Of a DNA stretch of 64,000 nucleotides, positions 3,536 through 57,653 are shown piece after piece (the first letter of the stretch is position 1; each line of letters opens with the position of its first letter). The position numbers and the translations under genes are program-made. This DNA comes from Raillietiella orientalis (Eukaryota), in assembly GCA_036172245.1 (NCBI GenBank), contig JAYWIR010000031.1, forward strand, positions 1,178,001 through 1,242,000, given 5' to 3'. Under the pieces are notes generated by a model. That model had not been told where the DNA came from. It was given only the letters and a program-made list of their open reading frames with translations, and did not search any database.

Positions 3536-4431
3536 ATGATGTTTGCCCGAACTGTAGATGCGTCTCCGCAAATTCTCTTGAAAGTGCTTTGCGTCCTGCT
3601 TTTATTGAACCTTTCGAGTCCCCGGCCGGAGAGCAATGCCATCATATTCGAGGAGAGTGGTGACCAGGACAAGTACGACCAGGGATCGTACCTGGGCGCT
3701 GCTAAGCCGGACTCCCAAATCACAGGCTCCCTGAGCAAGTCTCCCGGAGAAAGTGATGTGGAAAACAAGTCGGATGCTGGAGAGGGTAACGACACGGACA
3801 CTAGATTCTTTTGGGGTAAGTTCGGATTTCGATCGCAGATTTGATTTCTCTTGTTGTGTTTTGCAATGGAAGATCTCAGTCGGCGAGCGCGCGCGCGCGC
3901 GCACTGTGTGTGTGCACTTACTTCAGATTTGCCTCGTGACTTTCGTCTTTCCTGTTTCGTGAATCCACGCTATCACCTTCGTGACACTGAGAGGCTCTGA
4001 GTTTTCTGATCTCACACCAGCGTGATTTTAGAACAGACTCCCAACTGGTACGATAATTTGCTCCCTCCCGCCGAAATGACGAAAAACGTCTCATACGACT
4101 TGTACTCAACCTAACTTCTAACTTGCGGTATGCAATAGTATGTAACGAATTATAATCGCCTTAGAATAGCATGAAAAGGCCGGCGTGTTATGTGCAAGTG
4201 AGGTGAACGATAGCTCACATTTGTATTTTGCATTGGAATGGTTGCTAAAATAAGAAAAAATCTCATTCTTCAGGATATCCAAGCTATTCATACAATTACG
4301 GATCTGGAAGCGGCTACAGTTATCAATACGCAAATGGCTACGGTTACTTCCCACAATATGGCTACTATCGTCCTCAATACCAGCCTTATTATCGTCCCCA
4401 TTACCGGCCCTCTTACCAAAGATGGTGGTGA
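3536..4431 (+). CDS. Secreted Tyr/Gly-rich precursor protein, 'RFFxG' family member A (about 145 aa; exons 3536-3815, 4274-4431)
   Basis: Acceptor ccctgttgcag just before the ATG. Signal-like ILLKVLCVLLLLNL. Acidic spacer ends GNDTDTRFFW-G|gtaag. Acceptor cattcttcag|GA restores the frame: GYPSYSYNYGSGSGYSYQYANGYGYFPQYGYYRPQYQPYYRPHYRPSYQRWW*. AATAAA at 4635-4640. Confidence 0.85.
3886..3916. repeat. (GC)n/(TG)n alternating purine-pyrimidine microsatellite in the intron of member A
   Basis: gcgcgcgcgcgcgcgcgcactgtgtgtgtgcac read directly. Confidence 0.85.
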
Positions 4432-5869
4432 CGCGCATGCAAAGTAGTCTTCATTCCATTTTTTTTGAACATCCAAGCAAGCATTCACTGATTTCTCAGG
4501 TTCTCTGAAAATTAGGCATTCTCCAGCATAAAAGAAATCCACCCACATATGTTTTCATGTCGGGTGGATAATATGCTTTTATCTTTCAAACATAAAGTTC
4601 CTATTGACTATGAGGAACTTGATGACGAAAGAGTAATAAACATGCTGAGAAAGTTGACAGAGTTAGTGGTCAAGGAGTGTATAGGGTAAGGGGTGTGTGC
4701 AGTGTAGTGGGGACGGTTTTTAGTGGGTAGGATAAGGAGCCATTTGAGATGCATTGGATGAGAAACATTCCATAGTTGGTCACATTTGGTCTATCCCACG
4801 TGTCGGGATACTATGAGTTGATGCGCAGAGTTCCTGGAATTCGTAAAGAATAAAACAAAGCATTGTCAGTCGTCGATGCCAACTGTCACTTGCAAGTCCA
4901 GAATTGCAAAATCTGCTGGCTGATATCACCAGATGGTAATTTCCACAACGGGGCTGTTTTTGCGTCAAGAAGAAGAACGGAGGTCCTCTTCATTTAGGAG
5001 CTCATTTTCTGTGATTCAAAATGCATACGTTACGAGTGCTACCTAAACTGAAAGACGCTGAGAGCTCTGGAGCCACCATTCCAATCTGATTCCAAACTCT
5101 GCTTCCAGAATAGCTAGCAAGCTAGTTAAAAAATTGTGTCGCTCTAGCGAAAGAAAGGAATGTGGAAGATCACTGGAGTGGGAAGAAAACAGAAAACGGG
5201 AATGATCTTCATCCCCGTTTTCTGTTTTTTGTTTTCAAAATCCAAATCATGATCTTCATGATTTAGATTCTGGATCACACTTCTTGGTCGAGTGAGGTGG
5301 GTAGATTTAAAATGTGCTCTATGAAAGACTTCAGAAGAAACAGTAGAGTTGGAATAAAAGTAACGAACCCGTGTGAGCTCTGTTTTGGAGGGTCAGTAAT
5401 CATGAAAGTGATGTAGGATCCTTCTTTGTGAGATAGATGGCGGCCAAGAATTAGGAAGAACGCTGTTTGCCATAATTGCAAATGCTGTCATGAAGCTGAA
5501 TCTGTATCGGTGAACAGCGAACACTTCAACGACACTTGTGCAGTGTCTAAATTAGGTGGCCTTCCAGTGCAAGCCTTAGACTGCCATGCTGAATTTATAA
5601 GGAAGCTCAGATGGATTTCGGCGAGACGCAATGAGTGCAGAGATGGAGTCAAAGAGAACACTGCGTAGCTCGCAACACCCCCATGTGCATTTTTTTTTTG
5701 TGTGTGTGTTTGACTCCTCATGACCTGTAATAGATAATTGGAAGTTTTTCGAGTGCAGAGGTCAAACTGAGAATGAATGATGTCCAGTAATGTACTGATA
5801 TATACAATGCATCACTGTTACCCAAACAGCTCGGGCTCCCTCTCCATTCGATTATTTCTTCCTTCACTA

Positions 5870-6900
5870 AAGAAATCGGTGGGTGGGAGCGTCTAGAAGG
5901 GCGATTCTCAGGATGGTCGCCATGGAAGTTGGAATCCGCCAAGGAGTGTGTAACGACTCACATGCCGAAGCAACCGACCCTGAAAATGGATGGCGCTCAG
6001 GCGTCGAGTCTATATCCAACCGCCGGGGCAGAGCCATTCCTGCCTTCCGGGCGCGTTCCGGAGGACTACAGTTTCCTCAGGTTCCGGTGAGTAGGAGGGT
6101 CGCGACGGCGTGCGCAGATGGGTTTGGGCGCGAGCTCGCCTGGAGACGCCGTTGGAGCAGATCTTGGTGGTAGTAGCAAACACTGCAGTGAGATCCTGGA
6201 AGTCTGATGTGGAGAAGGGTTCCATGCGAACAGCCTTTGAGCATGATTCTATCGCCGTTGCTGGACAGAAGACGAAACATTGTCCCATATACTGAACAGA
6301 TGCAAGAAACACTTCCCTCTGTCCATGGCACGCCACAACGCGATTCAGGAAATGATCAGAAAGGCCGCAGTGGATGAAGCGGAATGGACCCTTGTATCCA
6401 GCAGCCAGAGGGTTCCAAGAACCAATTCCTATCTAAAACCGCATCTAGTAATGGAAAAAGGGAACCAGGTGTTAGTGCTGAACGTCTGCTGCCCACACAA
6501 AAATGGAAGAGGCATTCAGCACAGCCAGAAGAAGCAAAGGAGGAAAATACAAGGATGCAGCCCTACAGCTGGGGAGATGAGGAAATCAATGCAAGGTACA
6601 TGCATTCATCGTTGGCTCTCTGGGAGAAAGATGGAATCCAAAAAATGAGGAAGTACTGCAAGATCTAGGAATCCCACAGAAGAAATTGGTGGAAATGAGG
6701 CACCAGATGGTGGCTTCGTGCATCCGGTACTCAAGTAACATCTATGCAGCACACATCGCGCCAAAAATCCGCAACCAGCCGGAGAACCCCAACAGTCTGC
6801 TCTTACCACAAGGAAGCCAGGAAGGAGGAGCGACGAGCGCCCCAAGTGAGCAGTGGAGAAACTGCGAAAAAATGTCCCAAGCCCCCCTGTAACCAGGTAC
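5870..6900 (+). mobile_element. Decayed 3' part of an RLE-type (R2/NeSL/Utopia-like) non-LTR retrotransposon
   Basis: Degenerate CCHC knuckle (RRCWTEDETLSHILNRC), RHNAI, LKPHLV (PD motif decayed), VLVLNVCCP, AFIVGSLG and MRHQMVASCIRYSSNIY. Frameshifts and stops present. Confidence 0.8.
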
Positions 6901-7404
6901 TCAAACAGAGAGGCGAATGTGCTATCACTTCTAATGAACAGATGGTCTTCAGGAAAGAGCGCTGACGTCCACGATGTATTCAGTCCTGAACATTCATTTT
7001 AGACGTTCTGACTGTTTGAACTTCCTGGATAATTTTCGGTAGTTGAAACAATTAATCGCCGAAATTTCTAATGCCGCCTTTCAATACTGTGATACTTTCG
7101 TCATGAAATTTTTCGATGCCAGAAAGATAAAATCACCACAGAAAATCCGTTCCACTGATTTCGCTTTGCATCAAATGCTCTAAAGAATTTTGTTCACAAT
7201 CAGCCATCCTTTACCTCTTAAACAACAGAAGGTCGGGATGTTTGGTAAGTGTTATCATCATTTGCCCTGAAAGTAAGATGCTGCTGAAGAGTGGTCGAGA
7301 TAAGATAGTAGTGTGAGCAGTTTATCTTGGTGATTGGAAGAAAAGGATGAATAAAAAGTTTTGCTTGCTTTCTCCAAGAACACCGCTTTTTTCTTATATC
7401 TCCT

Positions 7405-8265
7405 TCAAAACTGGAAACTGAGGGCCTGAGACGGCACCAAAGTCCTCATTTGGAAAACTCTGTTCGCTTGACTATCCTCTCCTGAAAGCACAACATAGCA
7501 ATCACTAGAATGCTCTTTTTCCATAAGATCGAAAACTTATCTGCAATCGTATCATCACAGCATGGGGCCAATTGGCCACTAACCTCTGAGACTGATAGAC
7601 TGAGCTCCACTTTGAACACTATCTCTTCCTCGAACCTGGTCGAGGTTCCAGGAGAAAGCATACCGGGGACCTAGTCGATTTGAATTAGAATGTGCAGAGA
7701 GCCATTGTGCGCTTGCTGAGTCTTTAATCATAGCGTTCTGCTTTTCCATCCCCAAACTTATCCTTTTATACTTAAGTGTAAAAAGTAAAGTAGACTAAGT
7801 GTTTTCTTATGAGGAAACGGGGAAGAAAAAAATGTACTTTCTCCGAGGAAGAAGCAAGCAGCTTCCAGGATTGGATTCTTGCCAAACTGATGTGCACTTG
7901 TCTATCTCTGAATTTGTTTCCAGTGAGTAATTTAATGAGTAGCTCACAGCGATGGAAAAGGAAACTTGAACGTGTAATGTGCAAAAGACATCAGAGCACT
8001 CCAAGGTGGAGAGATAAAGGTGGGTGAAAACCTATAAAGAAAAAGCCAGTATGGGAGCTTCGGTCCATGGAACCATTCAAGAAGAAGCACAGAAAAAGAG
8101 AAGGCATCGAGATTGTGCCTCACGAAGTAACGAAACAGTTGACAAACTCTCTTTCTGACGTTCTGCGAAGCACACGAGAAAAACCAGTCGACTCACGCTT
8201 TGGAGTCTTCCATCGGGGTAGAAGAACCAAGTAAGTGGCATTGGTATGAGTAGAACCATGCTTAG
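7405..8265 (-). CDS. Three phase-consistent 3' exons (8265-8197, 7670-7584, 7481-7405) of a possible cuticle-protein-like gene; 5' end not found
   Basis: GT-AG junctions, all phase 1, give KHGSTHTNATYLVLLPRWKTPK-R-PRYAFSWNLDQVRGRDSVQSGAQSISLR-G-EDSQANRVFQMRTLVPSQALSFQF*. Partial resemblance to Rebers-Riddiford motifs. Confidence 0.42.
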
Positions 8266-11200: not shown

Positions 11201-12216
11201 GCTGCATAGACAATTTCTTTATGCACTTCGAGCAGAGTTTTCCTGGCTATTTGTTGCCTGTCCTGTTTGTGTCCTGTTTTGCTTCTAGCTGTCCTTATCT
11301 TAAAGCTACAGAGGATTATTATGCCTCTTTCCACTCATGAGCACTAGGCCGCCAAAGCACCGAAAGAGGAAAAAGAATTGCTGTTCATCGCAGCAAATTT
11401 ATGCCTAATGTAAAAAATGAGTCACCTTCTGCAGTGTCCTTACTGAAATGAAATAATGAAATTAAATACCTGAGCGGGTTCCTGAATCTCATTGGTCATC
11501 GCTGCATAACCTTTAGAATACCTGCTTTGAAAAAGGAACATCATTTGCAAGGAACATAGAATTAATACCTTAAATACGAATGCCTTGAAAGCTTAAATTA
11601 TTAACAGACTTTACGTATTCTGTAAGGGAAATTTACATACATTCCCCAAATCAAAACTTCCAAAGGTATGGGAAAATTGGTTTATAATGATTGGTGTATA
11701 CATTTGACATGAAAACTTCCTTTCATTATATTTAATTTGTACATTTTCAATTATATAAAGTTCAGTTTCATTTAAACGGTGATTCGTCATTCTACGTAAT
11801 TCATAAATTAAGCATTGATAAATTACCTATCGATTAAGTATTTTTATTTGATATCAGATATGAAATGTAACAACTATATATAGGAAAGGTATGATAAACA
11901 CTGTATTTAAACCTACTTAGGCCCACAAAGGAGGATGCTTAACTGGAAAACACGAAGCTGGGCAAACACATGATTACTTGCTGTTTCATAATGAGGGATA
12001 AAAAAGCTCACCGATCGAAAATTACTGGATTTGCTACTATGCCTCTAGGTATTAAAAAGTATCTCCTAGAGAGACGCAACGATGGCTCATTTTTCCTCTT
12101 GAAAGAAAGAAGAAATAGCCGTACACGCTGAGATGTTTGCTGAAGTCATGATGGAGCTAAGAGTGTTGACTTTCGAGGAAAAAAATACATAAGCATGCAG
12201 CAGCATCGCTCCTCCT

Positions 12217-12527
12217 TCACGTCATCTGGAACCGGGAATTCCTTGCTTTGTATAGAAGGGATCTGGTGACATGCCCCGGAACGCGATCTCGGTGACAAGT
12301 CAGAAACACATTATTCACGACCTCTGCTTCGATTTCAAGGTTGGATCCCGGGAGGTCCAGCATCACCACCCGCGCAAAATTCAGTCTACGGAACTTGGCT
12401 GGGAAGACAGAAGGAACCGTTTTCAGCAGCGCGGCGAGGTAATCTTTCGGAGCTATAAAGTTGTCAATGGCAACACGGTTGCAGTTGCATCTGCGCATAA
12501 GGCGTTGCTGCGGTCCGCTGAAACCGC
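12217..12527 (-). CDS. Orphan phase-1 terminal coding exon (about 103 aa), unknown product
   Basis: Strong pyrimidine-rich acceptor tcttccaactcgtctcgtttccgcag, followed by an open, protein-like frame: GFSGPQQRLMRRCNCNRVAIDNFIAPKDYLAALLKTVPSVFPAKFRRLNFARVVMLDLPGSNLEIEAEVV...RFQMT*. Confidence 0.5.
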
Positions 12528-12829: not shown

Positions 12830-14330
12830 GGCATGATTATCTTCTACATGGCAGCCGGAGTGATGGTTATTTTCAGCGTTCAAAAAAAACTTTCTCTTCC
12901 TGAAAGAAGCGACCCTCCTGAAGTTCTTGAAAAAGGGAATGCTTGTGAGAGCCAGAAACTTGACTCAAGTGACCGCGGATCGGACAAAGAGGCTGCTGAG
13001 GATCCGGTCCCAGGAAGTGTGCCATCTCGTGCCTGAGCTGTGCCTTACAAACCAGGAAGAATCACGTATGCATCCTTTTGGTTTCCCCGGAGACGCGGAG
13101 CCAAGTTCAAACGCCGATTTCTCTCGTGCATTCCCGAGGTTACAACCCCCGATAAACCGGAAAGTCGGTTGTGGCAAAATCCACTGGAATCCAAAACCGA
13201 TACCATCGCGGAATGGTTGCTACGTGACTGCTCAGTCTATCAGATTGTGGAAAACTCTATCAGATTCGTGCTTAAGGAGAAATCATTCTTTCAAAGATAC
13301 AAAAGTGTGTGCAAAAGGAAGGAGTTGATCGAAGGAAGGCGGCGTTATTTTGATTAAAAAAAAAAAAAGACTGGAAATACTGTTAGGGGAAGCATTGGCA
13401 GGATGTGTTTGGGGAGCAGTTCATCTTGGCCATCATCCAGCAATCGAGAAAGTTCACTGCGACCGTTAGGAATTCACAAAGAGGCTGGAAAACGGATCAG
13501 CCAACACCCAGATCAAGGAAAAACCGTGCTATGTACAGGACTCCATCGTTCCTCTGGTTACTTCTTGACGACTGGAGAGGATCTTCGTTTCGCCGACTCT
13601 CGCTTTATTCGAGCAGCAAGATTGAGCCTACTGCCGATCAGCGGCGTCTCATGGAGGCCCCAAGGAGAAAAAGGTTTCCCTGCCGCTGCGTAGCTTGGGA
13701 TGAGACCCAGCCTCACATTTTGAATCATTGCGTGAGGCCCTCTCCCCCACGCGCAGCAGGACACGATGACATAGTAACAAGACTGTTGGCAGCGGCAAAG
13801 GATACAGTAGGATGGGAGCAGACAAACAAGACGGCCCCTGGATGTGACTTCATCTTAAGGCCCGATCTAACGCTGCAGAAGGCGAATGAGATGATTCATC
13901 CTGTACAATTCGAAAATGCCCAAGAGATGTCCAGCTTGAGAATAACAGAAAAAGAAGAAAAGCACCAGGAGGAGCCGCTGAGGAAGAAAGAACTTCAGAC
14001 TGAAGCCACTAGGAGTCCGGGACCCACGAAATGATGGAGTGATCCGAGAGTTGGGTACCCCGAAGCGGGTATGTGGAGGAAATGAGGCACCTGATGTGGT
14101 CCCATGCATGCAGCACAGCAGGGACATCTGCTGGGTGTACGGATCAGGACGTCCTCCGAACGACGCCATCAAGCGGCAAGCTTATGAGGAGGGCTGCAGT
14201 ACAAGAAGAGGGTCTCTCATCAGATCCAAGAAGAACGAAGAAGCCGTCAGAAAGAGAGGAGGAGATACGGCAGAGCAATCCAAGTTATGTATCTGCACAC
14301 AATGTAATCGAATTGCTAAATAAAATCTGT
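12830..14330 (+). mobile_element. Second decayed RLE-type (R2/NeSL-like) non-LTR retrotransposon remnant
   Basis: CRCVAWDETQPHILNHC knuckle, GHDDIV (RHD equivalent), LRPDL endonuclease motif, and a C-terminal MRHLMWSHAC segment paralleling the 6.7 kb copy. Several frameshifts. Confidence 0.8.
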
Positions 14331-14399
14331 TCTTATCAGCTTACTATCTGATGTGCTACCTTTCTGATGACCAGTACATCAAACTATTTTCTGGAAGTA

Positions 14400-16500
14400 G
14401 TCAGGAGGCTTAGAGCTTGCTCTTCTCCTGTCGCGCGTTGACCCCGCATTCTGCAGTACCTCTGGGGTCGTTCCACTGCTTCCCTTCACGGGAGAACCTC
14501 CGCGCGAATGCAAGGTCATGCAGAGTTCGGGAATCGGACTCCGATTTGCCTCACGGCCCTTCGAGGTTTCCAGGATTGGAAAGGCGCCCCAAATGTGTTC
14601 AGGACCGCTCGGGAAGGAACGGAGTCACGGGTCGGTCTTGTGCAGCGACCCTCGCGACCGCGGAACCAACGTTAGAGAAAGAGAATCCGTGTGCTTTCCG
14701 ATCTCAGTGTTCTTGGACTGCGTTGTCCACGTAGGTCGTGGATCTGCGGTCGGGAGGGAGCGGTCCGCGCGTTGGCAGCATCCGCTTGTTCAGACTCCAG
14801 AGGGATGCCTTGCCTCGCTGCTGAGGGAGCAACTCGGACGCGGAGCAGCGGTTGTCGCTGGCAGTGCTGTCGGACCCTGCCAGCAGATGTTCCGCAGGAC
14901 CACTGAGCGTCGCCCGCCTCCTCGAAATTCAGAAGACGGCCAAGGCTGCCAAGGCCGGCGCTGCTGCTCCAGCCTTCGCCTTCCGCGGAGGGCGAACCGT
15001 GCCCGCTCAGAACGAAGATGAGGGAGGGGGGACACGGGTAGGGGCGACCCTGAGGGCCTAGGTGCTGGAAGGAACCTGGGTGCACGGGAGAAGAGGAGGA
15101 CGGATGGCGAACCATCTGGCAGCTGCCTCCCTACGAAGGTTCCCCCGTGACAGCTGGCATACGCGTCGGACAGAGCCCCACCCTGTGAAGCGACGAAACC
15201 TTGGAGCCGGAATGACTCTCGATCTGTGCTCTCAGAATTGCAGAGGGGAAAAGGTCCGATCTGCTTGAAACCCTGGAGCTCTGGCTGCCGTGAGCGCCAC
15301 CCAGTGGATCTGGTGCGGACGCTCTTCGGATCCCATGAGAGGTGTCGGTTGCCAGGGGCAGCGGGATGGCGGCGACCACGGGGAAGTTGGAATCCTCTGA
15401 AGGGCGCACGCGGCGACTCGCCCGCTGGAGTCAGCGGCCCCGGAGACGGAGGAATGGAAGCACCCGGACCGACGCGCCCCCGAGTCGCCCGGATTGAACC
15501 CTCCCTGCCCTCCGGTCGCTGGTTCTTCGGAGAAACAGGGATGGGAGAGGGGGCGGAAATTCTCCGGGATCCTGCGAGCAGAAGGATCTGCGTGAGCGCC
15601 CTCCTGGATCTGCTTGGAGCAGCCATCGGCTCCAGGCGAGACCCTGGGGGTCTGGCGCAGAGGAGGGGCCCCAGGCTCACAGCCTCCCGGAGTGGCCCTA
15701 ACCGAGCACTGCTTCGCCTGCCCGCGTTGCCGGGCTGGAGCGGCGACGCGCGCGGGTGGCGCGAATGCGCTCCGCCACTGAGCGTGCCCTCGGGAGAGGT
15801 CGCGGTCTCTGAGTGCGGGGACTGACGGCGGCGTCCTGCAACCGCCGCCGCGGAGGGAGGGGGACGAGGGAAGAACCCACTGCCTATTCGGGAAGCACCT
15901 TCCGAAATTTCTCAAAAATGCTCTCTCCGAAGGGATAGACTCGGTTCTCTGCACTCTCTGGGGAGGTGGCGAAACACCTACTCCATCAGTACGACGCGGA
16001 GGGTCCCTCATTGAAAGAGGAGGGACAGCTCTTGTGCACAATCGGATGGGTCAACCCGCTTCTCGATTCCTGGAAGGACCCGAAGGTTGACTCCTATAAG
16101 TCCTGGCCACTCATCAGGAGTATCCGGTTTGAACCGCCACCGGTGCCGCAACCTAATGAATGGAGGCCAACCAGCGGCATCTCGCGGGAGGAACTTGAAC
16201 CCGCGACACTCTTGCCACGCGCGGAGACCTCAGCAGCCACACGGCCTCCGAAGCGACCTCCGACTGGGAGGCTGCGGATGGGAGAATGGGAAGACTTCGG
16301 AACCTTGCCCTGTTGCTTGGCACCCCTCTGGAGAGGCGGTGGGTGCTTCCTCACCCCTACCAGCGGAGGAATCGCAAGAGTTGCAACCCCCCCAGACCGT
16401 CCCAGAGAAAAGGCGGTGGGAAGAGGAATAAACCTCCCCTCTGACGCTCGCGCCTGGAGCAGGCGCAAGAGCCGGAATGACGTCATGCTCCCGAACGAAA
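14400..16500 (+). mobile_element. GC-rich decayed LINE fragment, probably the ORF1 region of the local L1/Tx1-like family
   Basis: The 16.06 kb block LLDSWKDPKVDSYKSWPLIRSIR matches blocks at 23.0, 33.85 and 35.8 kb (ct[tc]gattcc(t)ggaagga core). Cys-rich decayed knuckle-like text near 15.25 kb. Confidence 0.55.
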
Positions 16501-16594
16501 GAAAGGGGGCTTTTTATTTTTTCCCCCCTAGAGGCGGCGAGGAACGGGATTCTCGGGAAGAGATCCGCAGGGGATTAAGGATAGCGGCAGCATC

Positions 16595-17331
16595 CTACCA
16601 CTCGCTGTAGGGTTCGTAGGGGGGCCTGTAATGGGGCGGAGGGCGGTGGCCTGGGTGGTGGTGGCCTGGAGGGCGGTACGGTGGTGGTGGCGGTGGCGGG
16701 GGGTAGTGGTGAGGCGGTCGATGAGGTGGTCCCGGGGGTCGGTGGTGCGGGCCGAAGCCCTGCATGGTGTTCTGCCCGAAGCCGAAGCCGATGCTGAGTC
16801 CTCCCACCTGCGAGCTGGACATTCCCAGTCCCGGTCCTAAGGGAAGCACGGCATCAGGGTGGTCATTGTCCCCGCTCCTCCTCAGGCGGGGTCGGTCGGC
16901 TGCGAGTCACCTTGCCAGGATAAAAAGGGGGGGGGGAGGGGGATGGAACGAACCTTCCTCTCCCTCCCCTTCCCCACTCACTTACCGCCGAAGAAGCGCG
17001 TCTCGGTCTCGTTCCCGTCTTCCTCGCCGCCCGGGTCCAGATGATCTTTCGAGAGCGCTGGGGGTCCGAGTGGCTTCTCCGTGCCACCCACATCAAGGGG
17101 GTCGGAGGAGGAGCTTCCGGAAGCCGCGGCCGCAGCTCCTTGCTCTACCTCCTCCTCGAAGATCACGTCAGGCGCCGGGAGCGCTTCTGCTGGAGGGACG
17201 TGCAGAGGAAGGAGGACCTTCACCAGAGGAGGTAAAGGGAGGTCAGCACGCGAGTGGCAGCCTACCAGCAGCAGCAGCAGCAGCAGCGAACCCCCCGCTG
17301 TGGCCCTGGAGGATCCTCTGGAGAAATGCAT
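16595..17331 (-). CDS. Secreted His/Pro-rich precursor protein, 'RFFxG' family member B (about 195 aa; exons 17331-16986, 16836-16595)
   Basis: Hydrophobic LLLLLLLVG. Spacer PDVIFEEEVEQ...GNETETRFFG-G|gtaag. 149-nt intron with acceptor cttcccttag|GA in phase. C-terminal exon GPGLGMSSSQVGGLSIGFGFGQ...HHRPPGPPHRPPHHYPPPPPPPPYRPPGHHHPGHRPPPHYRPPYEPYSEW*. AATAAA at 16513-16518 (minus strand). Confidence 0.85.
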
Positions 17332-17412
17332 GGCGTTCCCAGTGGCGGTCGTCACGAAGCGTCCAAAGAACCGACTAAGAGCGAGGATGGCCGGTCTCAA
17401 CCTCCCCGCCCG

Positions 17413-17419
17413 TTATAAA
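17413..17419 (-). promoter_or_regulatory. Candidate TATA box for member B
   Basis: TTTATAA in GC-rich context about 80 nt upstream of the ATG at 17331. Confidence 0.5.
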
Positions 17420-19246
17420 GGGGAGGCGTTCTGCGCTTCTGCAGATCGGGTCTCCAAGGTAACCTTCTGCGACACGCCCCTCCTCGGGGTCCGTCTTCCT
17501 GCGCAGCTCTCAGGGCGCCCGCTCTCCCGGTGCCTGGCAACCCCCTCTTCGCTACCGCAAGGCCGCCGGAGGGCGGCGCTGGGGAGGAAGGGAGGGCGGG
17601 GGCGGACGCAGCCGCACGGACCCACGGAAAGTCATGCGCGGCCCAGGAGCCCATGCGGCGAAGGGCTGTGCTGGAGGCTGCGGATGAGCCCGTCTACGCC
17701 GGCCGGGTCCCCAGCCGCAAACCGGCGGCGACCCTGAAGGGTCTCTCCCCACCGACTGGCCTCCCGTGGAGGGGAGTGCGCGCGCGCACAGATCCCTCTT
17801 CCTCCAGGAAGGGAGTCTAGCACTGCAGAACCGCATCTTCTCTGCAGGCTCCTTGGTAAAGCGACCATCTTGTAGCAGTACCTGATCCCAAGGTCTCGGT
17901 GGTCAGAGAGCCTCTCGAGAGATGGCAGCAGAGGGCCATGCCGAGAGCTCGGTGTTGTCCTCGCGCGCACCTGCCACCCACACCGTTCTCCCCAGAGCAG
18001 CCGGCTGAGGAACTGGACGGAGATCCTTTCCAGATGGCTCCAAGGCGGCATCCCGCCAACGCGAAGGCGAGGAAGGGATCCCAGGGCACGGCACGACCCG
18101 AAAGCCAGCGCAGGACGCGAGCAGAAGAGAGCAGGCAGCGGTGCTGCCAGAAGCTTCACGTGGTTTCTGTCAATCCCTTGCAACAGTAGCTGCCGGAAAG
18201 ATGGGAAAAACGGACGGGCAATGTCGATTAAAAGGTATCCTTGGAAACCTTCGGGTATGTCCTCTTAGACGAGCCTCTCCTTGCCCGTGCTGACAGCCGT
18301 CTGGACGCGGCACCAAACGACATGGGTGCGAATCGCCCCGGTAAAGATTGACTCCGAGTTGGCTCCGTCGGAGCTTTCGATTCTCCCCGCCAGATGACGC
18401 CGGGACTGCTCCCAAGCTTCGGGTGTTGCACTCATCCACGATCGGACGTCCTGTTGACTAGCCAGGAATTGGCAGTGGACCGTCCGGGATCACCCTCCCC
18501 GGTTCCCTTTAGACAGCGGTTCTCTTGGCTCCCCTTTCTGACTTCCGATGCGGAATCTCGGAAGATGAAAACGACGAAGTGAAAGTCTGGATAGCCGGAT
18601 GGAAGGAGAGATTGGCCGACAGTGGAAAGAACTGCTGGTACGCAAGGAACGCTGAAGTTTGGACTTTCGCACTTCGAGTGGCTAGAAAAGTGAGTACCAG
18701 TTCAAGCCACCCTACAGGAAGCAGAAGTGACCGGTAGTGGATGAACCTGAAGCGCTGACAATGAATGCCACAAGTAGACAGCAGACAAACTGTTGCTGAC
18801 CTTGCTGTGTGACTTGCTTTAAAATCATGCAGGACTGTCCTTCGTGTAAAACATCTAAATATTTCTAAATGTGCAAGGTGCTCTTGCGTGATCTCAGGGC
18901 TCCAGAAAGACCAAATGTGCTTTGTCGTGTGATCCTTCTTTTCCCAGATCGCTTTATGAGTGAGCGCCTTTGGATCCTAAAGTACGTCAAGATGGCTTCT
19001 CATTACCCTGCAGATCATTCTGGTATTTCTTTTGGGTCTCTACTAAAGAGATGCAAGATTCATACTCTGCTGTCGCTCTCGCTCTCTTACGCAATAAAGC
19101 CTTCCTGAGTCTTTTTCTTCCTCTTTTCTTTTCTTTTCATTTTCCTAGGTCTCACGGATCCTCTTGGCAATTCCACAGTGCTGGACTCCACTGCGAGACG
19201 AACCTTCCCACTGCGTACACTCCTCCCGCGTTCAGCATCACAAATA

Positions 19247-19508
19247 CGGTGATACCTCGGTACTCGTCAGTAATTCGTTCGGGAACTCGTGACGAGTGCG
19301 AACGAATTTTTCATATAAGCATGAATAACGCTTAAAATGCACAGGAAGCACAAAAAAAGAAACAGAGAATTCGGGAGGCACTCTATGGGAGTGTTCGGCA
19401 TTGTTCGCAAGACTAAAGCGCCTAGTGTCGAAACATTTTTTCTCTTCAAAATGCGGCGAGTACCGAGTCCGACGAGTTCCGACACCGCCAAGTGTTGAGG
19501 TACCATTG
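19247..19508. mobile_element. 262-bp MITE of Tc1/mariner-pogo (Tigger-like) type
   Basis: TA on both flanks (19245-46, 19509-10). Imperfect terminal inverted repeats CGGTGATACCTCGGTACTCG / CAATGGTACCTCAACACTTG. No coding capacity. Confidence 0.7.
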
Positions 19509-19699
19509 TATTTCGGATATCCGCGCCCTCAGTTTCCTCAGGATGACCACTTGACCGATAGTGAACCTCGAAGGAACGGGTCTGTGATCACCTGCTGGTT
19601 TACCAGCGGCTTCCTTGCTGCTTCTTGCAAACTCTAGACCTGAACTAAAGTCGGAACTCATTGCAGGTCATCCCGGGATCGGCAGCTCACTTTCACCGT

Positions 19700-21700
19700 C
19701 TGTTTGCAGCATCCATGGGTTTTTCTCACTGGTCAGGATGATGGGTGGAGACCAGGAGCGACCAGATTGCCTGGTGCGCCCGCTTTCGCAGGTCACCCAC
19801 TGGCGGTGGACGCACGCAACCAGGAAGATCTTTCAGCGTACTCTCCTTCTTCTCGTTCGCAGTTCCAGTTCATTTTAGCCACTCCCTACCTGCAGCTCCT
19901 GCGCTCCTTTCTCTATAGCATCACCTTCTTGGTACCAGACCGGCATCTCTTGGAGAAGAACCTTCCTCCTCGCACAGAACCAAACTTTCTCATTTCCAAT
20001 GTCAGGAGGGATCTAATAGCTGATCAGAATACCAAGATATTCGGGAAGAGGTAATAACCTTGAAGAACCCTTCCTTCCTTAAGCACAGAAACGTAACAGA
20101 AATGCTACAGATATCTTTTAGTGGGATAGATGGGTCTTGCAAATCCCTCGCCGGCCGGAGTGCCGGTTACTCTGCAGGTTCCGAACACTTTCGGACAATG
20201 GATGCACTGAAGCGAAGTGGCGTCCCTGCACTTAGAAACAGAAGTTTACGGTTCGGGCACGGAGCCGGCGCCTGCCAGAAGGCGAGGTGCTTCAAGTGCA
20301 GCCAGCAAGGCCACCTGATCGACGGCTGCACGAGGGACGCCGCAGGGCAAGCTCTCGCGGCACGCTAACCTCGAGTGGCCCCCAGCGCTGAAGAACAATC
20401 GGACCCTCCCCCCTGAAGTGTCAGAATTTAACACTTCTCCTGTTGAACTGAGGTATCCTGTGCAACGCCCGCCGCTCTCAATTAACCCGGGGCTAGAAAG
20501 AGGATCAGCAGCAGCAGAAGGCGGAGTCTGCGAGCGCAGTCCCGAGCTTCGCCGAGGAGAAGAAGAACAAAAGGAAGCCTGTTACCGAGAAACCTCCTCC
20601 TCCTCCGAAAGCGCTGACGGACAGCACCGTGACCGAGGAGGAGTAGAAGCAGCAGGCGGTGAGGAGCATGAGCAGAAGTGCCCTGAAGAATGACTTCCGT
20701 CCGGACAGCACCTAAGAGACCCTGCTCCCTCATCCCCGAGTTCCAGGACGAACGAAGAAGGAAGAGGATGCTTCTGGAGCATGAAGAGAGGTCGGAGAAA
20801 GCCAAACTTGTCCGGGAGGGCCGACAGGCCTCTCCTGATGAGCTGATAAAGGCAAAGCCCTCCTGCCGTCGGGTACACATTCCAATATTTTTTTGATGTA
20901 TCTGCATGGCATGAGAATATATGGGCGAACGGGTACATCTGGTAGGCGTGCTTCTTTGTGGAATCGCCTGGTTCCACGAAGAAGCACGCTATCCAGCCCG
21001 ATTGGTTCTCCTCTCGTGGAAACGCTTACTCTTTCCGTAACCATCTGGATTTTTTCCTCACAACCTCGGACGCACTGAGTGCTTCGAAAGAGACAGCAAT
21101 GCAACGGCATTTCCCGACTGGACGTCCTTCAGGAACTCGAATCCCAGATGCCATCGCACAGAGCCCTTCCCCTGTCGGCTGGCTTCGTACGCTGGGATTC
21201 CCACTGCATCAAATCACTGTCCCGATAGATCACAACGCGCATGTCGTGTCAGAAAGAAAGGAAAACAGTCCTTTCCTTCCGCAAGGGAAGCCACGTGGGC
21301 TGTAGGAGAACCTCAGATCACTTCGAGTCGTAGAGCGACCCTGGGAAGTTTCGTTCTGAGGAGAAGACAAGCGGAGCCTCTCAAGCAGAAGGAAAAAGAA
21401 AGCGAAACCCTCGAAATAATCCCCGATGGCCTCCCTTCCGGTCGTTCTCCAGAAGCCTCAAGATCGCCTTCTGGAACGCCACCTGCATGTAAGACCAGGA
21501 GACAGCAAGAATCACGCGCAGCACGGAGAGTGGTGGTACCGTGTGCCTCAGGAAACCCGCCTTGAGCCCTCCTGGACACCCAGCTGTTTGCCGGCACCTG
21601 CACTGACCCCTTGGTGCATCCTGAAGAAACTGCGGATGACCTGACGTACTCAAAACGTCATCGATTCCTCCTCCTCCTCCCTAAAGTGACCATCCACAAG
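19700..21700 (+). mobile_element. Decayed L1/Tx1-like LINE: ORF1 zinc knuckles plus endonuclease remnants
   Basis: Perfect CX2CX4HX4C knuckle CFKCSQQGHLIDGC, preceded by a decayed one (RFGHGAGAC). Downstream VYLHG...RRASLWNRL, GTRIPD, IDHNA (APE SDH-like) and PRGL*E (GxWKLN-like). Confidence 0.7.
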
Positions 21701-22789
21701 GACAGAACAGCGGAGTGCGCGACACAGCGTGGAATTCAGAGCAACATGCGGTGCTCACACGCGGTGTCTCAGACGCGGTCCATAGTGTGTAGGAAACCCC
21801 TGTTGCATTCTCGTCAAAAAGAACAAACTGTCGACAATAAAATCACCTCGCCGCTTGTAGGATCTGAGGGAAAATGATGCTGAGAACGAGTTGAACCACG
21901 CGATCAATCCGTCCTCGCAAAAGTCCTCGCAGCAACGCGTAGGCGCAGTCCAAGTTTCGCATCCCAGACATTCTCGTAGAAGCTGCAAGCATTTTTTTTG
22001 GCTTCTTCTTCTGATGAAAGCCCTTGGATTTTTAAAGAAACACAGGTCTCCGTTTTTCGGGCTGGGGATTCCCGCTCGCCAGGCGGACGCGAAACCTTGT
22101 GAGACCAGAAAGAAATGTCGGACGTGTCTCCGCGCACGACGTTTGTGGACTCGTGCCCTTGCCGTGCACAGGAAGCACGGAATTTCAAGGTTTCTCGAAG
22201 TCGGCAAGAGGTTTCAAGGGAGGGGTTCCAGAAGAGCGCGTCTTTACCCTTCACGGCACGGGCGTTTCCGGTGGATAGCCTCCGCCTCTCCGTAGGCTCA
22301 CCCGAAATAACTTGTCCTCGCGTCACTGAGCTCCGTGCACACCTCGGCGTTGCGACTTCTTCCACACGTTCCGTGCAAAAATTCACGTGGGCCGGGTCTC
22401 CTGCCCCCTGCAAGTTTGCAAATGGCGCCTTTTCCGCTCTTGTCCGATACGCACACGCGTCACACTTACCGAAGGAAGGCTGCAGAAAGGCGGCGCTGCG
22501 GTTTCCTTTTTTTTTCTTTTTTATCCCCTCCCGCCTTCCCACCTCCCGTTTGGGTCCTGCCACATTTGCTAGGACGCTCGACAAAACGAAAAGAACGTGT
22601 TTTTTGTTTTCTTCGGGACAAAAAAGGCGTGAAGACTGTGCTGTTGGGCAGAGGACTTTGTCCAAAGCACGACTTCACGTGCTTCCTAGTCTTTCCAGGA
22701 AACTCGCATCCACATCTTTTCCATCTTCAATTTTTTTCTTTTTTTTTTTTTTTTAGCTTCCTTGACGGTCTTTTCCTGTGCACGGCCCG

Positions 22790-23780
22790 CGTTGGCGGCC
22801 GCGTGGCTACAGCGGTCTCCGCGCCTGGCACCAAGCGTTGCAGGTTCGAACCCCCAAGTTGAAGGTGGCCCCCTCGAGAGATGGGGGTGCGTCGTGGGTA
22901 CTTCGGGCCCCTTCCCTGCAGGATGAAGTTGGTTGGCCCACGGGCTTCGGATGCAGCGCTAGTGAAGTCCGAATGTCCCCTTTGACTGGCCGGCCTCCTT
23001 CCAGGAATCAAGGAGCCGTTTCGCCTCGGGGTTCCACTCCGGTCGCAAAAATGGGGCCGTCTTCCCCTTCGGGAAAAGGGGGCAGGAATTCATCGTAGTA
23101 CTATGGAGCTGGTTGATGGGCACCTATCGAGTATCAAGGAATGCTCTGCTCCGCCACTCTTCAGAGAACTTTGGAAGCGCTCCTTCGGGGTCCTCTACAA
23201 AGAAGCACCAACAAGGAGAGGTTTCTTATCCATCCGGAGAAGAAATGAGTCCCCCTTTGAGGAAGACCTCCGGAGAGAATGGGGAAGAGGTTCCCTTCGG
23301 AGAAGATAAAAAAGAAATGCAACAGCCTTCTCCTACGCAAGGGCTTCTGCAAGCCACGAACCAATGAGGCGTAAACTTCAGCTTGAGAGTCACCCTTTAC
23401 CCCAGAATCCCAGTAGGGATTCTCGTGGGTTCTTTCAACTAAGAAGAACGATGTGAGGCGTGGCTGAACGGAATAGTGGATGCGGGGAACTCGATTTGGA
23501 CGCTGCCCGAAACCAAAACACGGAAACTTGCGACCCAAAGACCCGAGGTGATCGAACGGAAAAGCGAGCAGAGAGCCCTTCCCCTGGAACTTTCGGAGGA
23601 GAGGATGATCTCTCGCGAAGACATCCTCTGCCTCGAGGATGCAGTTTTTTCCCACGATCTAGAGAAGTTGGCCGCGAATCGGTCGCAGCTTTCAACAAGG
23701 TCAGGAGCTCGTGCTTCCTGACCCCGGGTGCCGAAAAGGCGCTCATCAGGGCTACTCGGCAACCTCATCCACCTCGTCTC
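22790..23780 (-). mobile_element. Fragment of the local L1/Tx1-like repeat family
   Basis: Nucleotide similarity to 33617-34200 (same orientation) and 35730-35880 (opposite), e.g. gtgaagtccgaatgtcccc...ccttccaggaatcaaggagcc and agaagcaccaacaaggag. Confidence 0.65.
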
Positions 23781-23862
23781 CGAATTCTACCACAGCCACT
23801 TTGAACCTTAGTCTAAAAAAAAAAAAAAACATGCTTCTGAGCTCCCAGAAGATTTTCTATTT

Positions 23863-25109
23863 CTAAATTCTAGCACTGTAGAGCGTCGTCACTCCACTAC
23901 CAGGTGCGATGTAGGTCCTGCAGTTACCAGACTGATGTGGTAGCAAGCCGCTGCATTCTTGGCTCACGGATGATGAGTAGTGGTACCCGACTAGGTTGGG
24001 GGGTCCATCAGTGTTGATGGCTAAAAGTCACTCCTTCAAGATTCAAGTGGAAACAGAGGAGGGGTCCGATCTTCTACGGTGCAGGCGTAGAAAATCAGCC
24101 CATCCGTGTGCATTCTAACTCTCCTCAAGCACCCGTACGCAGTTTAAAATGACCGATTCGGTAAAGAGCGGCCGCTCTCGTGAGAGAAACGCGAGAGATT
24201 GGGCGGTCGTCACCGCTCCTCTGTCCAGAGCATTACCGAGCTCTGACGACAGAAATGAACCGGGAGGAAAAAGGAAGCTCCTTACATGATTGGAGAGCCA
24301 CCGGCGGGCGGGCATTTTGGTTCCTAAAGTCCAGCTCTTGGGTGACCACCTGATTTGGGTGTTGAGTCAGGTTCGCTGCATGCGTGGGCCTCGTTACTAC
24401 GGAATGGACCCGCTGTCCCCGAATCTCACGTGTTCCAGAGCTCTGCAGAGTCGCTCTTCTCAGAATATCATCGACTTCTTTGTGGATCCTCTGAATGTTT
24501 TGGTGGATTTCATCGGGCGTGGGCGGTGGCGGCAAGAACGGCGCTGGCAATACAGGAGCAGCTGAGAAACAGATTCGGAATCTCGGTAAAAATTCTCGGG
24601 CTCCATGGGCGCAGGCGCTGTTTACGGTTTATGCCGTAGGCGTTCCGTAGCTGAGTCTCCAGGGCAGTTTGGTGCTGTTGCTGCAGCCGCTGGTGATGGC
24701 GGAGGATCTCCTCGTGCTGGTGGCGCACCTGCTCGGCTAGAGAATCGAAAAGCTTCCCTACTTGGTCCGCGGGATGGGGCGCCTGCAGATTGGGTGGTGC
24801 TGCGACCTGGAAGCGCAAGGTGACGGAAACGCGGCTTGCAGCGGATCCACCGTACCTGGCGCGGCACGCGGCGGTTTCCGTCGGGAGCAGGGCCGACACC
24901 TTTGGGAGTTCGCGCAAGCCCTGGAACGGCGTCGCTACGCGGCGCGGCGCCGACGAATCCCGAAACTTTGGCAGGGATCCTCCTGCCCAACTCTCTCGAT
25001 AGGACGCACCCATTCCCCCACAGCGCTGTCAGCAACAGCGCCTAAGGAAAAACGCGCGTCGCAATACAGTACAACATCGAAAGGGACTTACAGCAAGTAC
25101 AAACTCCAT
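23863..25109 (-). CDS. Six-exon gene for a secreted Gln/His/Pro-rich protein (about 254 aa; exons 25109-25092, 25041-24856, 24806-24626, 24561-24430, 24375-24286, 24020-23863)
   Basis: All five GT-AG introns (50, 49, 64, 54, 265 nt) are phase-consistent. Spliced signal peptide MEFVLA|ALLLTALWGNGCVLS. RRVPR|Q convertase-like site. Helical segments LFDSLAEQVRHQHEEILRHHQRLQQQHQ and PDEIHQNIQRIHKEVDDILRR. C-terminal Cys pair (ECSG...GNCR). Confidence 0.8.
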
Positions 25110-26163
25110 CGCAGAGCTTTTCCGCAATTTCCACGACACTGAAATTCTGTTTACCAGATCAGTGACCATATGGAAAGAATTGGTGGCGCAGCTGCTCCCA
25201 TATTTGCTGGGGGATCAGAACGCAAATTCTGATTAGTCCTCGGCTGGAAAGTCCACAGAACGTCAGTGAATCAGTTTTCCTTGCCGAAGGATACGAGAAT
25301 AAATTGCCCCCAGGCGACAGAGTCCGCCAACATCGCAGCTCTCCATCTCGAGTTGTCCACACGCTCAGCGTTGAGCCTTCGGTGAAAACCAGAGCACCTC
25401 GTTCCGGAAACTGGTTCCGACGACGACGACCTGGAACGAATTTTCTCCGAGGATTCCGTTTCCGTCCTCCCGGCGAAGTCAGCCGAGAACCAGAAGGACC
25501 TACTTCTTCCGTCGGATGAGTTTGTCTTTTTTGCGTGTTTCGAAAACTTGGTTGATGCATCCCTCTGCGCGCAGGAAACCGAACTCGAATTTCCGATGCT
25601 AGATGGAATCTAACGGTGGCTCAGAGAGTTACGGTTGCCTTCGCGAGTCACTGCCAAACGCAGGGGACCAAGCAGCAAGCCCCAGAACATCACTGGAGAT
25701 GAAAGGGAAGCATCCTGCTTGGGACTGCACATGATCACATGATGAGATCACAAGCCACAGATATGCGTTCCCTCCCCCCTCCCCCTCTCTCTCTTGCTCA
25801 GATTGTAAACGTACGGGCATTTGCGCCATTTAAACGTGCCAGTGTGATCAAAGCAGCCATTGTCATGGATCTCTCTGAGATACATCTTCCACTCGTTCAG
25901 CGAACCAAGTCTGCAAGAATCTTCGGCATCCCAGCTCCGAAAGAGAGCTACCCGCAACAGGTTGCCCACCTCCGTCACAGTGCCGAATCACATCACTTCT
26001 TGACACACTCACAAGAGAAACTTTATTCGAAAAGAAAAACTTCTGGGCATGCGGACCAGTTTATCAAGCACGAAGCAGATGCACGCTTCCGCTTGCGTTT
26101 TTTTTTTTTTTTTTTTTCTTCTCCACTTCGAGACGGGATTCGTGATATGCGTTTCTTCCTGCA

Positions 26164-27857
26164 TCATTCGTTTCTGTTGCTGCGCCAGAATGGATGTTGA
26201 TAGTAAGATGACAATGGCCAGTAGGGAAAATAATAAGGCATTATTCCCGGATAATAGGGTCTGAGGCCGGCACCATAGTAGTTTCCAAAGCTGCCGAAGC
26301 CGATGCCACCATATCCGTATCCGAGCCCTTGGCCCAAGTAACCTGAAATTCTCGAATGAGCGGAGAGTCTCAGACCACCAGATGGAATCCAGCGTGCTCT
26401 TCGGATCGAGTTCAGCACAGATCTTTGACACGTGAGAGCAGCACGCCAAACATCCGATTCTGAACGGCTTGCGCCTCGTGCAATGAATTCATCACTAATC
26501 GATGTGTACCATATGTAGCAATCAGCTTTCCGTTACTGACTGTGAGCATGAAAGCAATGATCTTCTCAACCCTGAATCGATTCATCAATATGATCATTAT
26601 TATTAAGCGCGCCTATTATAAAAGTGCACCAATTACACGAAATGGTATTTGTCATTGGGATGAATGTTCGCACGGAGCATAAATACAATATGGACCAAAT
26701 GCAACACGATCTCTCAGATTGCACGCAGATGAATTAGAGGCGCGCAAAGTGTGTCGTTACGTCGCCAGCTGCACGGTTGTGATGGATTCATTTTTATTCT
26801 CAAATATCGTCACATCTCAAATGAATATTCTCGGAAAGGAGCAGATTTTGGAGCCACTGAGATCTTGGTCTCCATCTTTGATAAAATGAGTCAGCTTTTG
26901 AAAATGAAAATAAAGAGACCCGACGGCAATATTCTGGAAGATCGGATTGTACGGGCTTTGGTGAAGCTTAAATCTCGCAGTACAATGCCAACGACTGCTG
27001 GAGGGGGAGTCGTACCATGCTTTCACATAGATGTGTACCTAAGATCCGACAAGAAAATCCGCCCCCATTGCCTGCGACACTTGGAAAAATAAAAAATACG
27101 GAAACTTTCAACACTTCCGAATTTTTTTTTTTCCTCCGTCATACTGTATGATCCCTATTGCAATCATTCTGCAGCGTTGGCATGGCATCGTACCGTTGCT
27201 CCTAGTGAGGGCTTCAACGAAGTCTCTTTGATGTGTATCGGGTTTTTGAAATCGCGATGCACCAAGAAGTGCTCAAAAGACAAAAATAAATTTGTTTAAG
27301 TGATTCGAAAAAATCAAAAGGTGTCGCACGGATGGAAAATTCGAGCACCTTTGCACAAGGTGTTTAATTCTATTGTTCATTATCAGTTTTTTTTTTTTTC
27401 CTTGCAACACTCTAAATGAAGATCACAACAAAAGCATTTTCGCGGAGCATCTTTAAAGGAAACGCATCTCGGAGAGTTAGTGATCTCGGAAACACCACGT
27501 CGAATTTTCAAAAGAGTGCGGTTGAAAGGAATGGGGGAAGGTTGTCGGAAGATAGCCGCTCCCATTCGTGTCGGATGCAAAACGCCTGGAATGGCGGACG
27601 AAGAGCCGAATGATCCCGCGGACCGTTTTCAGAGAAAGACTGAGATTACCTGGATAAAAACCGCCACCGTAGAACCTCGACTGAACATCTGATTGCTTGA
27701 TGGGAACAGCATCTACGGGGATGGCATTTTCGTAATCAGCATCTGAACCAGCTAATGCTAAAGGAAGAAGGAATGCAAGCTGGTCCAAAAGCATCAGTTC
27801 CGTGCTTCCGTACCCATTGCATCTTACCGCAGTCGTCGTCTTCAAGTAGATGGCCAT
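26164..27857 (-). CDS. Secreted Gly/Tyr-rich precursor protein, 'RFFxG' family member C (about 112 aa; exons 27857-27828, 27779-27650, 26342-26164)
   Basis: Spliced signal peptide MAIYLKTTTA|LAFLLPLALAG. Short acidic spacer ends DVQSRFYGGGFYP-G|gtaat. Acceptor atttcag|GT gives GYLGQGLGYGYGGIGFGSFGNYYGAGLRPYYPGIMPYYFPYWPLSSYYQHPFWRSNRNE*. AATAAA at 26022-26027 (minus). TCAGT initiator-like element near 27910. Confidence 0.85.

Positions 27858-57565: not shown

Positions 57566-57569
<4 letters not shown>

Positions 57570-57650: not shown

Positions 57651-57653
<3 letters not shown>

Follow-up and report, generated by a model that had tools for sequence, protein, structure and literature searches.

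The window analysed here is a 64,000-nt stretch of Raillietiella orientalis DNA (GenBank assembly GCA_036172245.1, contig JAYWIR010000031.1, positions 1,178,001 to 1,242,000 of the forward strand). Three dispersed genes, designated A, B and C, lie between its positions 3536 and 27857, and each encodes a small, secreted-looking protein with an acidic front part, a short hinge of the R-F-[FY]-x-G type and an aromatic tail. An earlier note on this DNA had described them as a family of peptide precursors in which a conserved pro-exon is combined with a swappable, low-complexity terminal exon. The analysis supported a small paralogous family of secreted proteins with an Arg-Phe-[Phe/Tyr] hinge; its members look like ordinary lineage-specific matrix-type proteins and not like a new exon-swapping precursor system.

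The loci were read on the coding strand, each exon was translated and the splice sites were fixed for A, B and C (Table 1). The two-exon models proposed before were found in place at all three loci. The spliced frames are open through to the stop codon, giving proteins of 145 (A), 195 (B) and 128 (C) amino acids (aa), and the introns are of the GT-AG type, lie in phase 1 and have pyrimidine-rich acceptors. The codon split by the intron is the Gly ending RFFWG in A and RFFGG in B, with identical intron position and phase in these two genes; in C it is a Gly 5 codons further on, the earlier note having placed the split a few codons after the motif. A TATA-like box 78–88 nt before the ATG and an AATAAA signal 77–204 nt past the stop are arranged alike in the three genes. 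Of the signal peptides claimed for all three, a signal-peptide-like start was seen in A and B. For C the claim had to be corrected: from the first ATG (27857) a hydrophobic core appears only after about 21 residues, and a canonical short signal peptide is obtained from the inner ATG at 27794. A similarity between the promoters of A and C was dropped, as a MAFFT alignment was uninformative and blastn with 7-nt words gave no upstream match at E<0.1.

Table 1. Coordinates of the parts of genes A, B and C in the window
Feature	Position	Strand	Remarks
Gene A TATA-like box TTTAAA	3458..3463	+	78 nt 5' of ATG
Gene A exon 1, coding	3536..3815	+	signal-peptide-like start, acidic spacer, NDT sequon, ..TRFFW and first base of split Gly
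Gene A intron	3816..4273	+	458 nt, phase 1, GTAAGT...TTCAG, GC 0.44
Gene A exon 2	4274..4431	+	Tyr 33%, GxGx block, three Y-R-P repeats, RWW then stop
Gene A AATAAA	4635..4640	+	204 nt past stop
Gene B TATA-like box TTTATA	17414..17419	-	88 nt 5' of ATG
Gene B exon 1, coding	16986..17331	-	poly-Leu-core signal peptide, acidic spacer, NET sequon, ..TRFFG and first base of split Gly
Gene B intron	16837..16985	-	149 nt, phase 1, GTAAGT...CTTAG, GC 0.63
Gene B exon 2	16595..16836	-	IGFGFG block, five [HY]-R-P-P repeats, Pro 31%, His 12%, SEW then stop
Gene B AATAAA	16513..16518	-	77 nt past stop
Gene C TATA-like box TCAAATAA	27935..27942	-	85 nt 5' of first ATG
Gene C exon 1, coding	27650..27857	-	first ATG 27857, inner ATG 27794, short acidic spacer, SRFYGG, terminal split Gly
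Gene C intron	26343..27649	-	1307 nt, phase 1, GTAATC...TTCAG, GC 0.43
Gene C exon 2	26164..26342	-	Gly 22%, Tyr 20%; GLGYGYGGIGFGSFG then P/Y/F/W-rich part
Gene C AATAAA	26022..26027	-	137 nt past stop

Exon 1 ends with ..GNDTDTRFFW in A and ..GNETETRFFGG in B, and C carries ..SDVQSRFYGG. Every feature that had been listed as common to A and B was found, namely IFEE, LSK, GN[DE]T[DE]TRFF with its N-x-T sequon, PHYRPxY and a terminal Trp. The spacer, counted from the predicted signal peptide to the Arg, has a pI of 4.05 in A, B and C, which bears out the acidic spacer ending in R-F-[FY]-x-G that had been ascribed to all three genes. Beyond the Arg the pI is 9.33 (A), 9.81 (B) or 8.90 (C), with 0, 2 and 1 acidic residues and a net charge (K+R minus D+E) of +4, +3 and +2, respectively. 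Because of this change in pI, the invariant Arg marks the switch from an acidic block to an aromatic, weakly basic block. The tails contain 13–22% Gly and much Pro and carry [YH]-R-P repeats (pI 8.9–9.8). Residue counts also agreed with the last exons being about one-third Tyr in A (Tyr 33%, Pro 12%), His/Pro-rich in B (Pro 31%, Gly 16%, His 12%) and Gly/Tyr-rich in C (Gly 22%, Tyr 20%, Pro 10%). When the six exon peptides were scanned separately against Pfam at E<=1, only Tox-ART-HYD1 appeared, at 14.1 bits against a cut-off of 25, a chance match. The lack of Pfam and PDB matches for A, B and C fits disordered low-complexity chains, without proving them.

Kinship of the three genes

In the six frames of the window the pattern RF[FY].G was seen 3 times against 1.51 expected, and at least three matches occurred in 36 of 200 local shuffles, so that the motif count alone is not significant. 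Since the count is at chance level, the evidence for a family rests on the context of the motif. The window holds no match outside A, B and C, each of the three is followed by a G/GTA donor, and each lies 146–1307 nt upstream of a genuinely aromatic-rich coding stretch on the same strand. There are only three such stretches in the window; the remaining composition matches are poly-T/poly-F runs or isolated windows.

The comparison of exon 1 of A and B, with the signal peptides removed, gave a Smith-Waterman score of 59 against 26.4±4.9 for shuffled sequences, a value reached by none of 2000 shuffles, and the hinge regions of A and B were matched by BLASTP with E=7e-4. By these comparisons A and B are clearly homologous. 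Exon 2 of C resembles that of B beyond composition (score reached in 10 of 2000 shuffles). C was taken as a third member on account of its motif, its two exons split by a phase-1 intron, its acidic spacer and its exon-2 layout; its place in the family is probable, and weaker than those of A and B.

Relatives were sought in large protein collections with A exon 1, A exon 2, an A+B exon 1 profile and the whole protein of a neighbouring single-coding-exon gene, D (described below), the exons being used singly. The word-index search gave 1 candidate for A exon 1, none at E<=10; 11 candidates among longer proteins for A exon 2, none at E<=0.01; and 9 candidates for the complete D protein, none at E<=1. 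The HMMER profile of A+B exon 1 found no match at E<=0.001 among 1.84 billion representatives. In the ESM Atlas the best score for A exon 1 was 0.86, to bacterial hypothetical proteins and under the 0.9 taken as lead level, and among PDB sequences B exon 1 gave only chance matches to tryptophan synthase (E>=0.14), with none for A exon 2 or B exon 2. As D, too, was without a match, the source proteome is probably absent from these collections and the empty searches say little about novelty. These profile and protein searches, of the kind that the earlier note had called for, led to no characterised family, in collections that perhaps lack the source lineage, and its authors' failure to recognise the family was shared here: on sequence, no known family could be assigned to A–C.

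Among the titles listed for strings of the RF[FY]xG type there was no such family, and armadillidins, deer P9 and IDLSRF-like peptides appear to be short coincidental matches. The precursors of the IDLSRF-like insect neuropeptide are described with a conserved IDLSRFYGH(I/F)NT (PMC10194420); this candidate was rejected, as C has just SRFYG, its flanks differ (..SDVQ / GGFYP) and flanking dibasic sites are missing. Deer P9 is reported to terminate in RFFGG, and its sharing of this string with B is regarded as a coincidence.

Nature of the secreted products

The proteins A–C are most likely components of extracellular material, a reading given a probability of about 0.5: they would be lineage-restricted, secreted, disordered proteins of two blocks, as suggested by their composition, their neighbourhood and the literature on CPG proteins and resilin. 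In the proposed scheme A, B and C are old paralogues, TATA-driven two-exon genes for small, intrinsically disordered proteins. Behind the signal peptide would come an acidic block with a pI of about 4, probably bearing an N-glycan in A and B, then the R-F-[F/Y]-x-G hinge, and then a weakly basic tail, essentially free of acidic residues and built of a GxGx-aromatic block and [Tyr/His]-Arg-Pro repeats. The tails would be the working part of a structural material such as cuticle, eggshell or the like, with Tyr, His and Arg driving their self-association and oxidative or quinone cross-linking, and the acidic block would prevent the sticky tail from coming out of solution while the protein is secreted, regardless of any later cut at the Arg. 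The last exons would have come to differ in composition where they stand, through slippage of repeats and a drift that followed the base composition around them, B lying in a 61–65% GC block; no exon exchange would be required.

The closest parallel is offered by insect cuticular proteins of the CPG/CPLC type. CPG proteins are described as a signal peptide followed by Gly/Tyr repeats of the GxGx/GGY type, of which the GGY repeats are thought to cross-link, and the cross-links of resilin are di- and tri-tyrosine (PMC12426002). The feature that marks CPG in that source, a secreted protein with GXGX or GGXG repeats, was found at the start of exon 2 in all three genes, as GSGSGY for A, IGFGFG for B and GQGLGYGYGGIGFG for C, although this is a compositional class and no proof of kinship. 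A–C also resemble the CPG/CPLC-type proteins in the absence of a globular domain, in the combination of Gly/aromatic GxGx repeats with Tyr and Pro, and in coming from small clustered genes; in the known group, cross-links through Tyr are presumed (PMC12426002). Unlike these proteins, whose classes are defined by composition or by conserved blocks, A–C showed none of those blocks by Pfam, and a hinge of the form R-F-[FY]-x-G behind an acidic N-terminal block appears in none of the CPG/CPLC descriptions in the consulted part of PMC12426002.

Several observations weigh against this account. The six exons, scanned separately at E<=1, matched no cuticle-family Pfam model, including those for R&R chitin-binding, CPF, Tweedle, retinin-type and GYR/YLP. 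The invariant Arg sits exactly at the acid/base switch, which would also fit a cleavage site. Exon 1 of C shows no significant similarity to that of A, where 779 of the 2000 shuffles reached the score, or to that of B, where 231 did; the exon 2 similarity beyond composition is only marginal between A and C (145 of 2000) and between A and B (73 of 2000), and the membership of C therefore depends mainly on the motif, the gene structure and the likeness of its exon 2 to that of B. Finally, a residue-level route from Tyr to His in gene B is unsupported, 6 of its 10 exon-2 His residues lying in B-specific insertions. Point substitutions of Tyr to His had been considered for B and were given up, as only 2 of the 10 align with a Tyr of A, and the argument from GC content was the one kept.

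The Arg at the charge switch is a candidate processing site, where cleavage would be conceivable but is not supported by the analysis. On this basis A–C could be precursors of defence peptides, in which the acidic propeptide neutralises the tail and a cut after the Arg frees Gly/Tyr-rich (A, C) or Pro/His/Arg-rich (B) peptides. This alternative, which is considered unlikely, has in its favour that the Arg is invariant in all three proteins and stands exactly where the pI rises from 4.05 to about 9–10. The earlier note had compared the layout with that of spider precursors carrying the processing quadruplet motif (PQM), defined by an Arg at -1 together with one Glu or more at -2 to -4 (PMC6832493). 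The likeness covers the signal peptide, the acidic pro-part, the single Arg and the basic part that follows (PMC6832493), and E-T-E-T-R of B, with Glu at -3, agrees with the definition. D-T-D-T-R of A and V-Q-S-R of C have no Glu, so the comparison with PQM held for one gene of the three, and PQM-type processing was not upheld for the family. A further difference from the spider precursors is that the tails of A–C are neither amphipathic cationic nor of the cystine-knot kind. Moreover, the hinge lacks a dibasic site in A, B and C, and conservation in the family runs across the Arg, whereas in systems of hypervariable peptides it stops at the cut. The spacers are also far more acidic than balancing of the tails would need: a spacer of -9 faces a tail of +4 in A, and one of -13 a tail of +3 in B.

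Among known antimicrobial peptides, the proline-rich ones (PrAMPs) are defined in Box 1 of PMC7736402 by at least 25% Pro and a net charge of at least +1, antimicrobial activity and an intracellular target (DnaK or the 70S ribosome) being essential. Exon 2 of B agrees with both sequence criteria (31% Pro, +3), while A and C, with 12% and 10% Pro, fall short of the Pro criterion and are weakly charged (+4 and +2); these charges, all of them at or above +1, assume cleavage at the Arg. The tail of B, with five [H/Y]-R-P-P repeats, recalls PrAMPs like Bac5 and deer P9, in which X-R-P-P is repeated, but the tails of A–C lack the PRP motif and no homology was detected. Linear antimicrobial peptides rich in Gly, Tyr and Arg are known in crustaceans, and one group of them, the armadillidins, resembles A–C in having short secreted tails rich in Gly together with Tyr, Phe, His and Arg (PMC7017220). 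In the rows available from that source the armadillidins have 25–57% Gly, a strongly basic character (pI 8.6–12.1) and mostly repeats of the GGGF(H/N)(R/S) type, in contrast to the lower Gly content and [YH]-R-P repeats of the A–C tails, and the armadillidin descriptions there mention no long acidic spacer (PMC7017220). The hymenopteran hisnavicin and glynavicin, considered as a lead, were dropped, as the consulted part of PMC10542623 held nothing tying them to A–C.

A second alternative, rather unlikely, is that the proteins belong to another gland product (saliva, glue, cement, silk-like or seminal) and that the genes form a tissue-specific secretory neighbourhood. Two more genes of a similar kind were recognised in the window. 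Gene D (minus strand, 29800–31041) has a single coding exon (30282–29800) for a secreted-looking, Gln/Ser/Pro/Tyr-rich protein of 160 aa. Before it lie a TATAAA (31041) and a first exon that is non-coding and reaches a GTAAG donor near 30929, and an AATAAA follows at 29594; the D protein has no Pfam match. In gene E (plus strand, 44642–45510, TATAAA at 44642) the ATG at 44967–44969 forms the last 3 bases of exon 1 and is followed directly by GTAAGT. A signal-peptide-like exon (45100–45170) and a last exon (45240–45510) complete a protein of 114 aa, the last exon encoding Pro/Ile/Gly/Asn-rich repeats (GPGPVI.., ENPII..); AATAAA is absent within 400 nt past the stop of E.

The absence of domains was not confined to these genes. 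The Pfam scan of the window covered the first 300 by coordinate of 327 open reading frames (ORFs) of at least 70 aa and 150 of 158 further ORFs (those of 48–69 aa within 38–55.9 kb and, past that point, those of 48 aa or more, minus the 8 with the lowest coordinates). No domain-bearing gene was found among these 450 ORFs, and the three sub-threshold matches were to ZapG-like, MASE11 and COG5_N, the last in a frame unlike a real exon.

Small TATA-box genes for secreted proteins without a domain are typical of highly expressed gland products, and genes A–E all have a TATA-like box, 2 or 3 exons, a signal-peptide-like start and no known domain. Nothing in their sequences is specific to cuticle either. 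Positive evidence for a gland origin was not found, and sequence alone cannot separate this reading from that of matrix proteins.

A bolder proposal, regarded as quite improbable, combines some of these elements. The conserved N-x-T-x-T-R-F-F-x-G hinge, cut after its Arg, would act as a processing site of a new kind, monobasic and flanked by a glycan, from which self-associating peptides rich in Tyr and Arg are set free, B having been remodelled by GC pressure and slippage into a His/Pro-rich, PrAMP-like form within an undescribed arthropod family of acid-block/aromatic-block proteins. If true, it would mean base-composition drift visibly creating new peptide chemistry within one gene family.

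It is very unlikely that one or more of A, B and C are non-functional, being chance ORFs or decayed copies. Gene B is the most exposed to this objection, as it lies within a GC-rich block where long ORFs are present in every frame; the window contains 96 ORFs of 110 aa or more, of which many surround B, so ORF length is uninformative, and the chance-level motif count and the lack of orthologues in the protein-collection and profile searches point the same way. Against it stand three intact spliced frames with canonical splice sites, the A–B similarity that no shuffle reached, the identical intron position and phase of A and B, and TATA-like and AATAAA signals at fitting distances in all three genes.

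Divergence of the last exons

One layout could be aligned over the three last exons. It opens with a GxG-aromatic-G block, which reads GSGSGY in A and IGFGFG in B, with GLGYGYGGIGFG as its counterpart in C. The [Tyr/His]-Arg-Pro repeats come next, as three copies of Y-R-P in A, five of [HY]-R-P-P in B and a single R-P-Y-Y in C, and a P-H/G-x-x-P-x-Y element and a Trp follow. At the DNA level short, colinear, in-frame matches were found between A and B in the hinge (41 nt, 73%) and in PHYRPxY (24 nt, 83%), between B and C in IGFG (14 of 14 nt), and between A and C in PYY..P.Y (27 nt, 78%).

The bias of B is not restricted to its last exon. In the spacer the proportion of GARP residues is 0.37 in B against 0.25 and 0.26 in A and C, and that of FYMINK residues 0.07 against 0.22 in both. 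GC content at third codon positions in gene B is 0.70–0.73, and the GC content is 0.63 in its intron and 0.63 and 0.65 in its flanks, the values for A and C being 0.41–0.51. Since exon 1, the intron and the flanks are shifted as well, the Pro/His bias of B goes with its GC-rich surroundings.

The simplest reading of these sequences is that each last exon diverged where it stood, through repeat slippage together with a drift following the local base composition. The swappable terminal exon of the earlier note was therefore not upheld, the last exons being colinear diverged homologues and the shift in B spanning both exons. Nor was its picture of a conserved pro-region in front of a hypervariable mature part, as the spacer is poorly conserved save for three short islands and conservation crosses the Arg. 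A modular system, in which exon shuffling joined one pro-exon to unrelated low-complexity terminal exons, is highly improbable: it would suit this reading that each of the three genes has a phase-1 intron at or close to the hinge and that their last exons differ sharply in composition, but the in-register DNA matches between every pair, the similarity of exon 2 in B and C beyond composition, the extension of the B shift to exon 1, intron and flanks, and the lack of spare or alternative terminal exons among the only three aromatic-rich coding stretches of the window all speak against it.

Surroundings of the genes

An ATG-led ORF at 62026–62223 (minus strand) has a signal-peptide-like start, MRVVSKFFLLSACFAL.., and is possibly the first exon of another secreted-protein gene close to the end of the window.

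Rfam recognised a decayed U2 small nuclear RNA (snRNA) at 14289–14481. The U2-like sequence begins at 14325 with ATCTGTTCTTATCAG, directly behind GCTAAATAAA (14315–14324). It adjoins what appears to be the decayed 3' part of a non-LTR retrotransposon at about 12860–14481 (plus strand), whose ORFs 13387–14034 and 13982–14323 contain a C..C...H....C knuckle and an RPDL-type stretch, a combination which we take to mark the restriction-like endonuclease type. The retrotransposon terminates in GCTAAATAAA and is followed by the U2 snRNA fragment from about U2 nucleotide 38–39. In Utopia elements, whose hosts include arthropods, nematodes, echinoderms, reptiles, oomycetes and Acanthamoeba, the disrupted U2 genes begin at nucleotide 39 beside the 3' end of the element, and the bee, beetle and turtle rows of S1 Fig have ..GCTAAATAAA.. 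a few bases before TCTGTTCTTATCAG (PMC4640811). The CAGCTTA of the window is that of the two arthropod families seen there, whereas the turtle rows have CAGTTTA (PMC4640811). By analogy with the junction described for Utopia (PMC4640811), the element beside the U2 fragment would be a Utopia-like retrotransposon. Judged by this junction and the listed Utopia hosts, and with CpG values unlike those of vertebrates (below), the DNA would come from an invertebrate animal, probably an arthropod.

A 104-nt fragment of large subunit ribosomal RNA (LSU rRNA) was also found by Rfam at 5897–6000 (plus strand, 68.6 bits, model positions 1217–1332), and a second decayed ORF with the same type of knuckle and endonuclease (6247–6648, plus strand) lies about 250 nt downstream. 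The two may be what is left of an element that targeted rDNA. Three copies of an interspersed repeat, 76–85% identical, occur at 22996–23224, 33781–34078 and 35731–35890, two of them inverted and 1.8–1.9 kb apart around 33.8–35.9 kb. A 32-nt unit is repeated three times with 98% identity at 48801–48896, and an (AT)n microsatellite of 58 dinucleotide copies with palindromic flanks and overlapping inverted repeats occupies 57518–57757.

The window has a mean GC content of 45%, with a minimum of 32% at 48–50 kb. The bin 48001–50000, the most AT-rich, is the sole strongly CpG-depleted one, with an observed/expected (o/e) ratio of 0.16. In 31 of the 32 two-kb bins CpG o/e is 0.6–1.1, so that CpG is not depleted. 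Vertebrate genomes are CpG-depleted, and the idea that A–C might be vertebrate genes of the SCPP, statherin-type or epidermal differentiation kinds was given up, since such values are not vertebrate-like. A GC-rich block extends over 14001–26000, with 61–65% GC at 14–18 kb and 52–55% at 18–26 kb, again without depletion of CpG, and its long stop-free frames on both strands gave no Pfam match.

The findings on A–C overturn no current view. Lineage-specific families of secreted low-complexity proteins are common in invertebrate genomes, and if A–C are expressed they would be a further example among the many, poorly catalogued low-complexity proteins that are secreted to make up or shield invertebrate surfaces. 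With B in 61–65% GC and A and C in roughly 41–51%, the trio would also provide a clean within-genome test of the effect of base composition on a disordered protein, namely whether local GC content can reshape a Tyr-rich chain into a Pro/His-rich one while its layout is kept.

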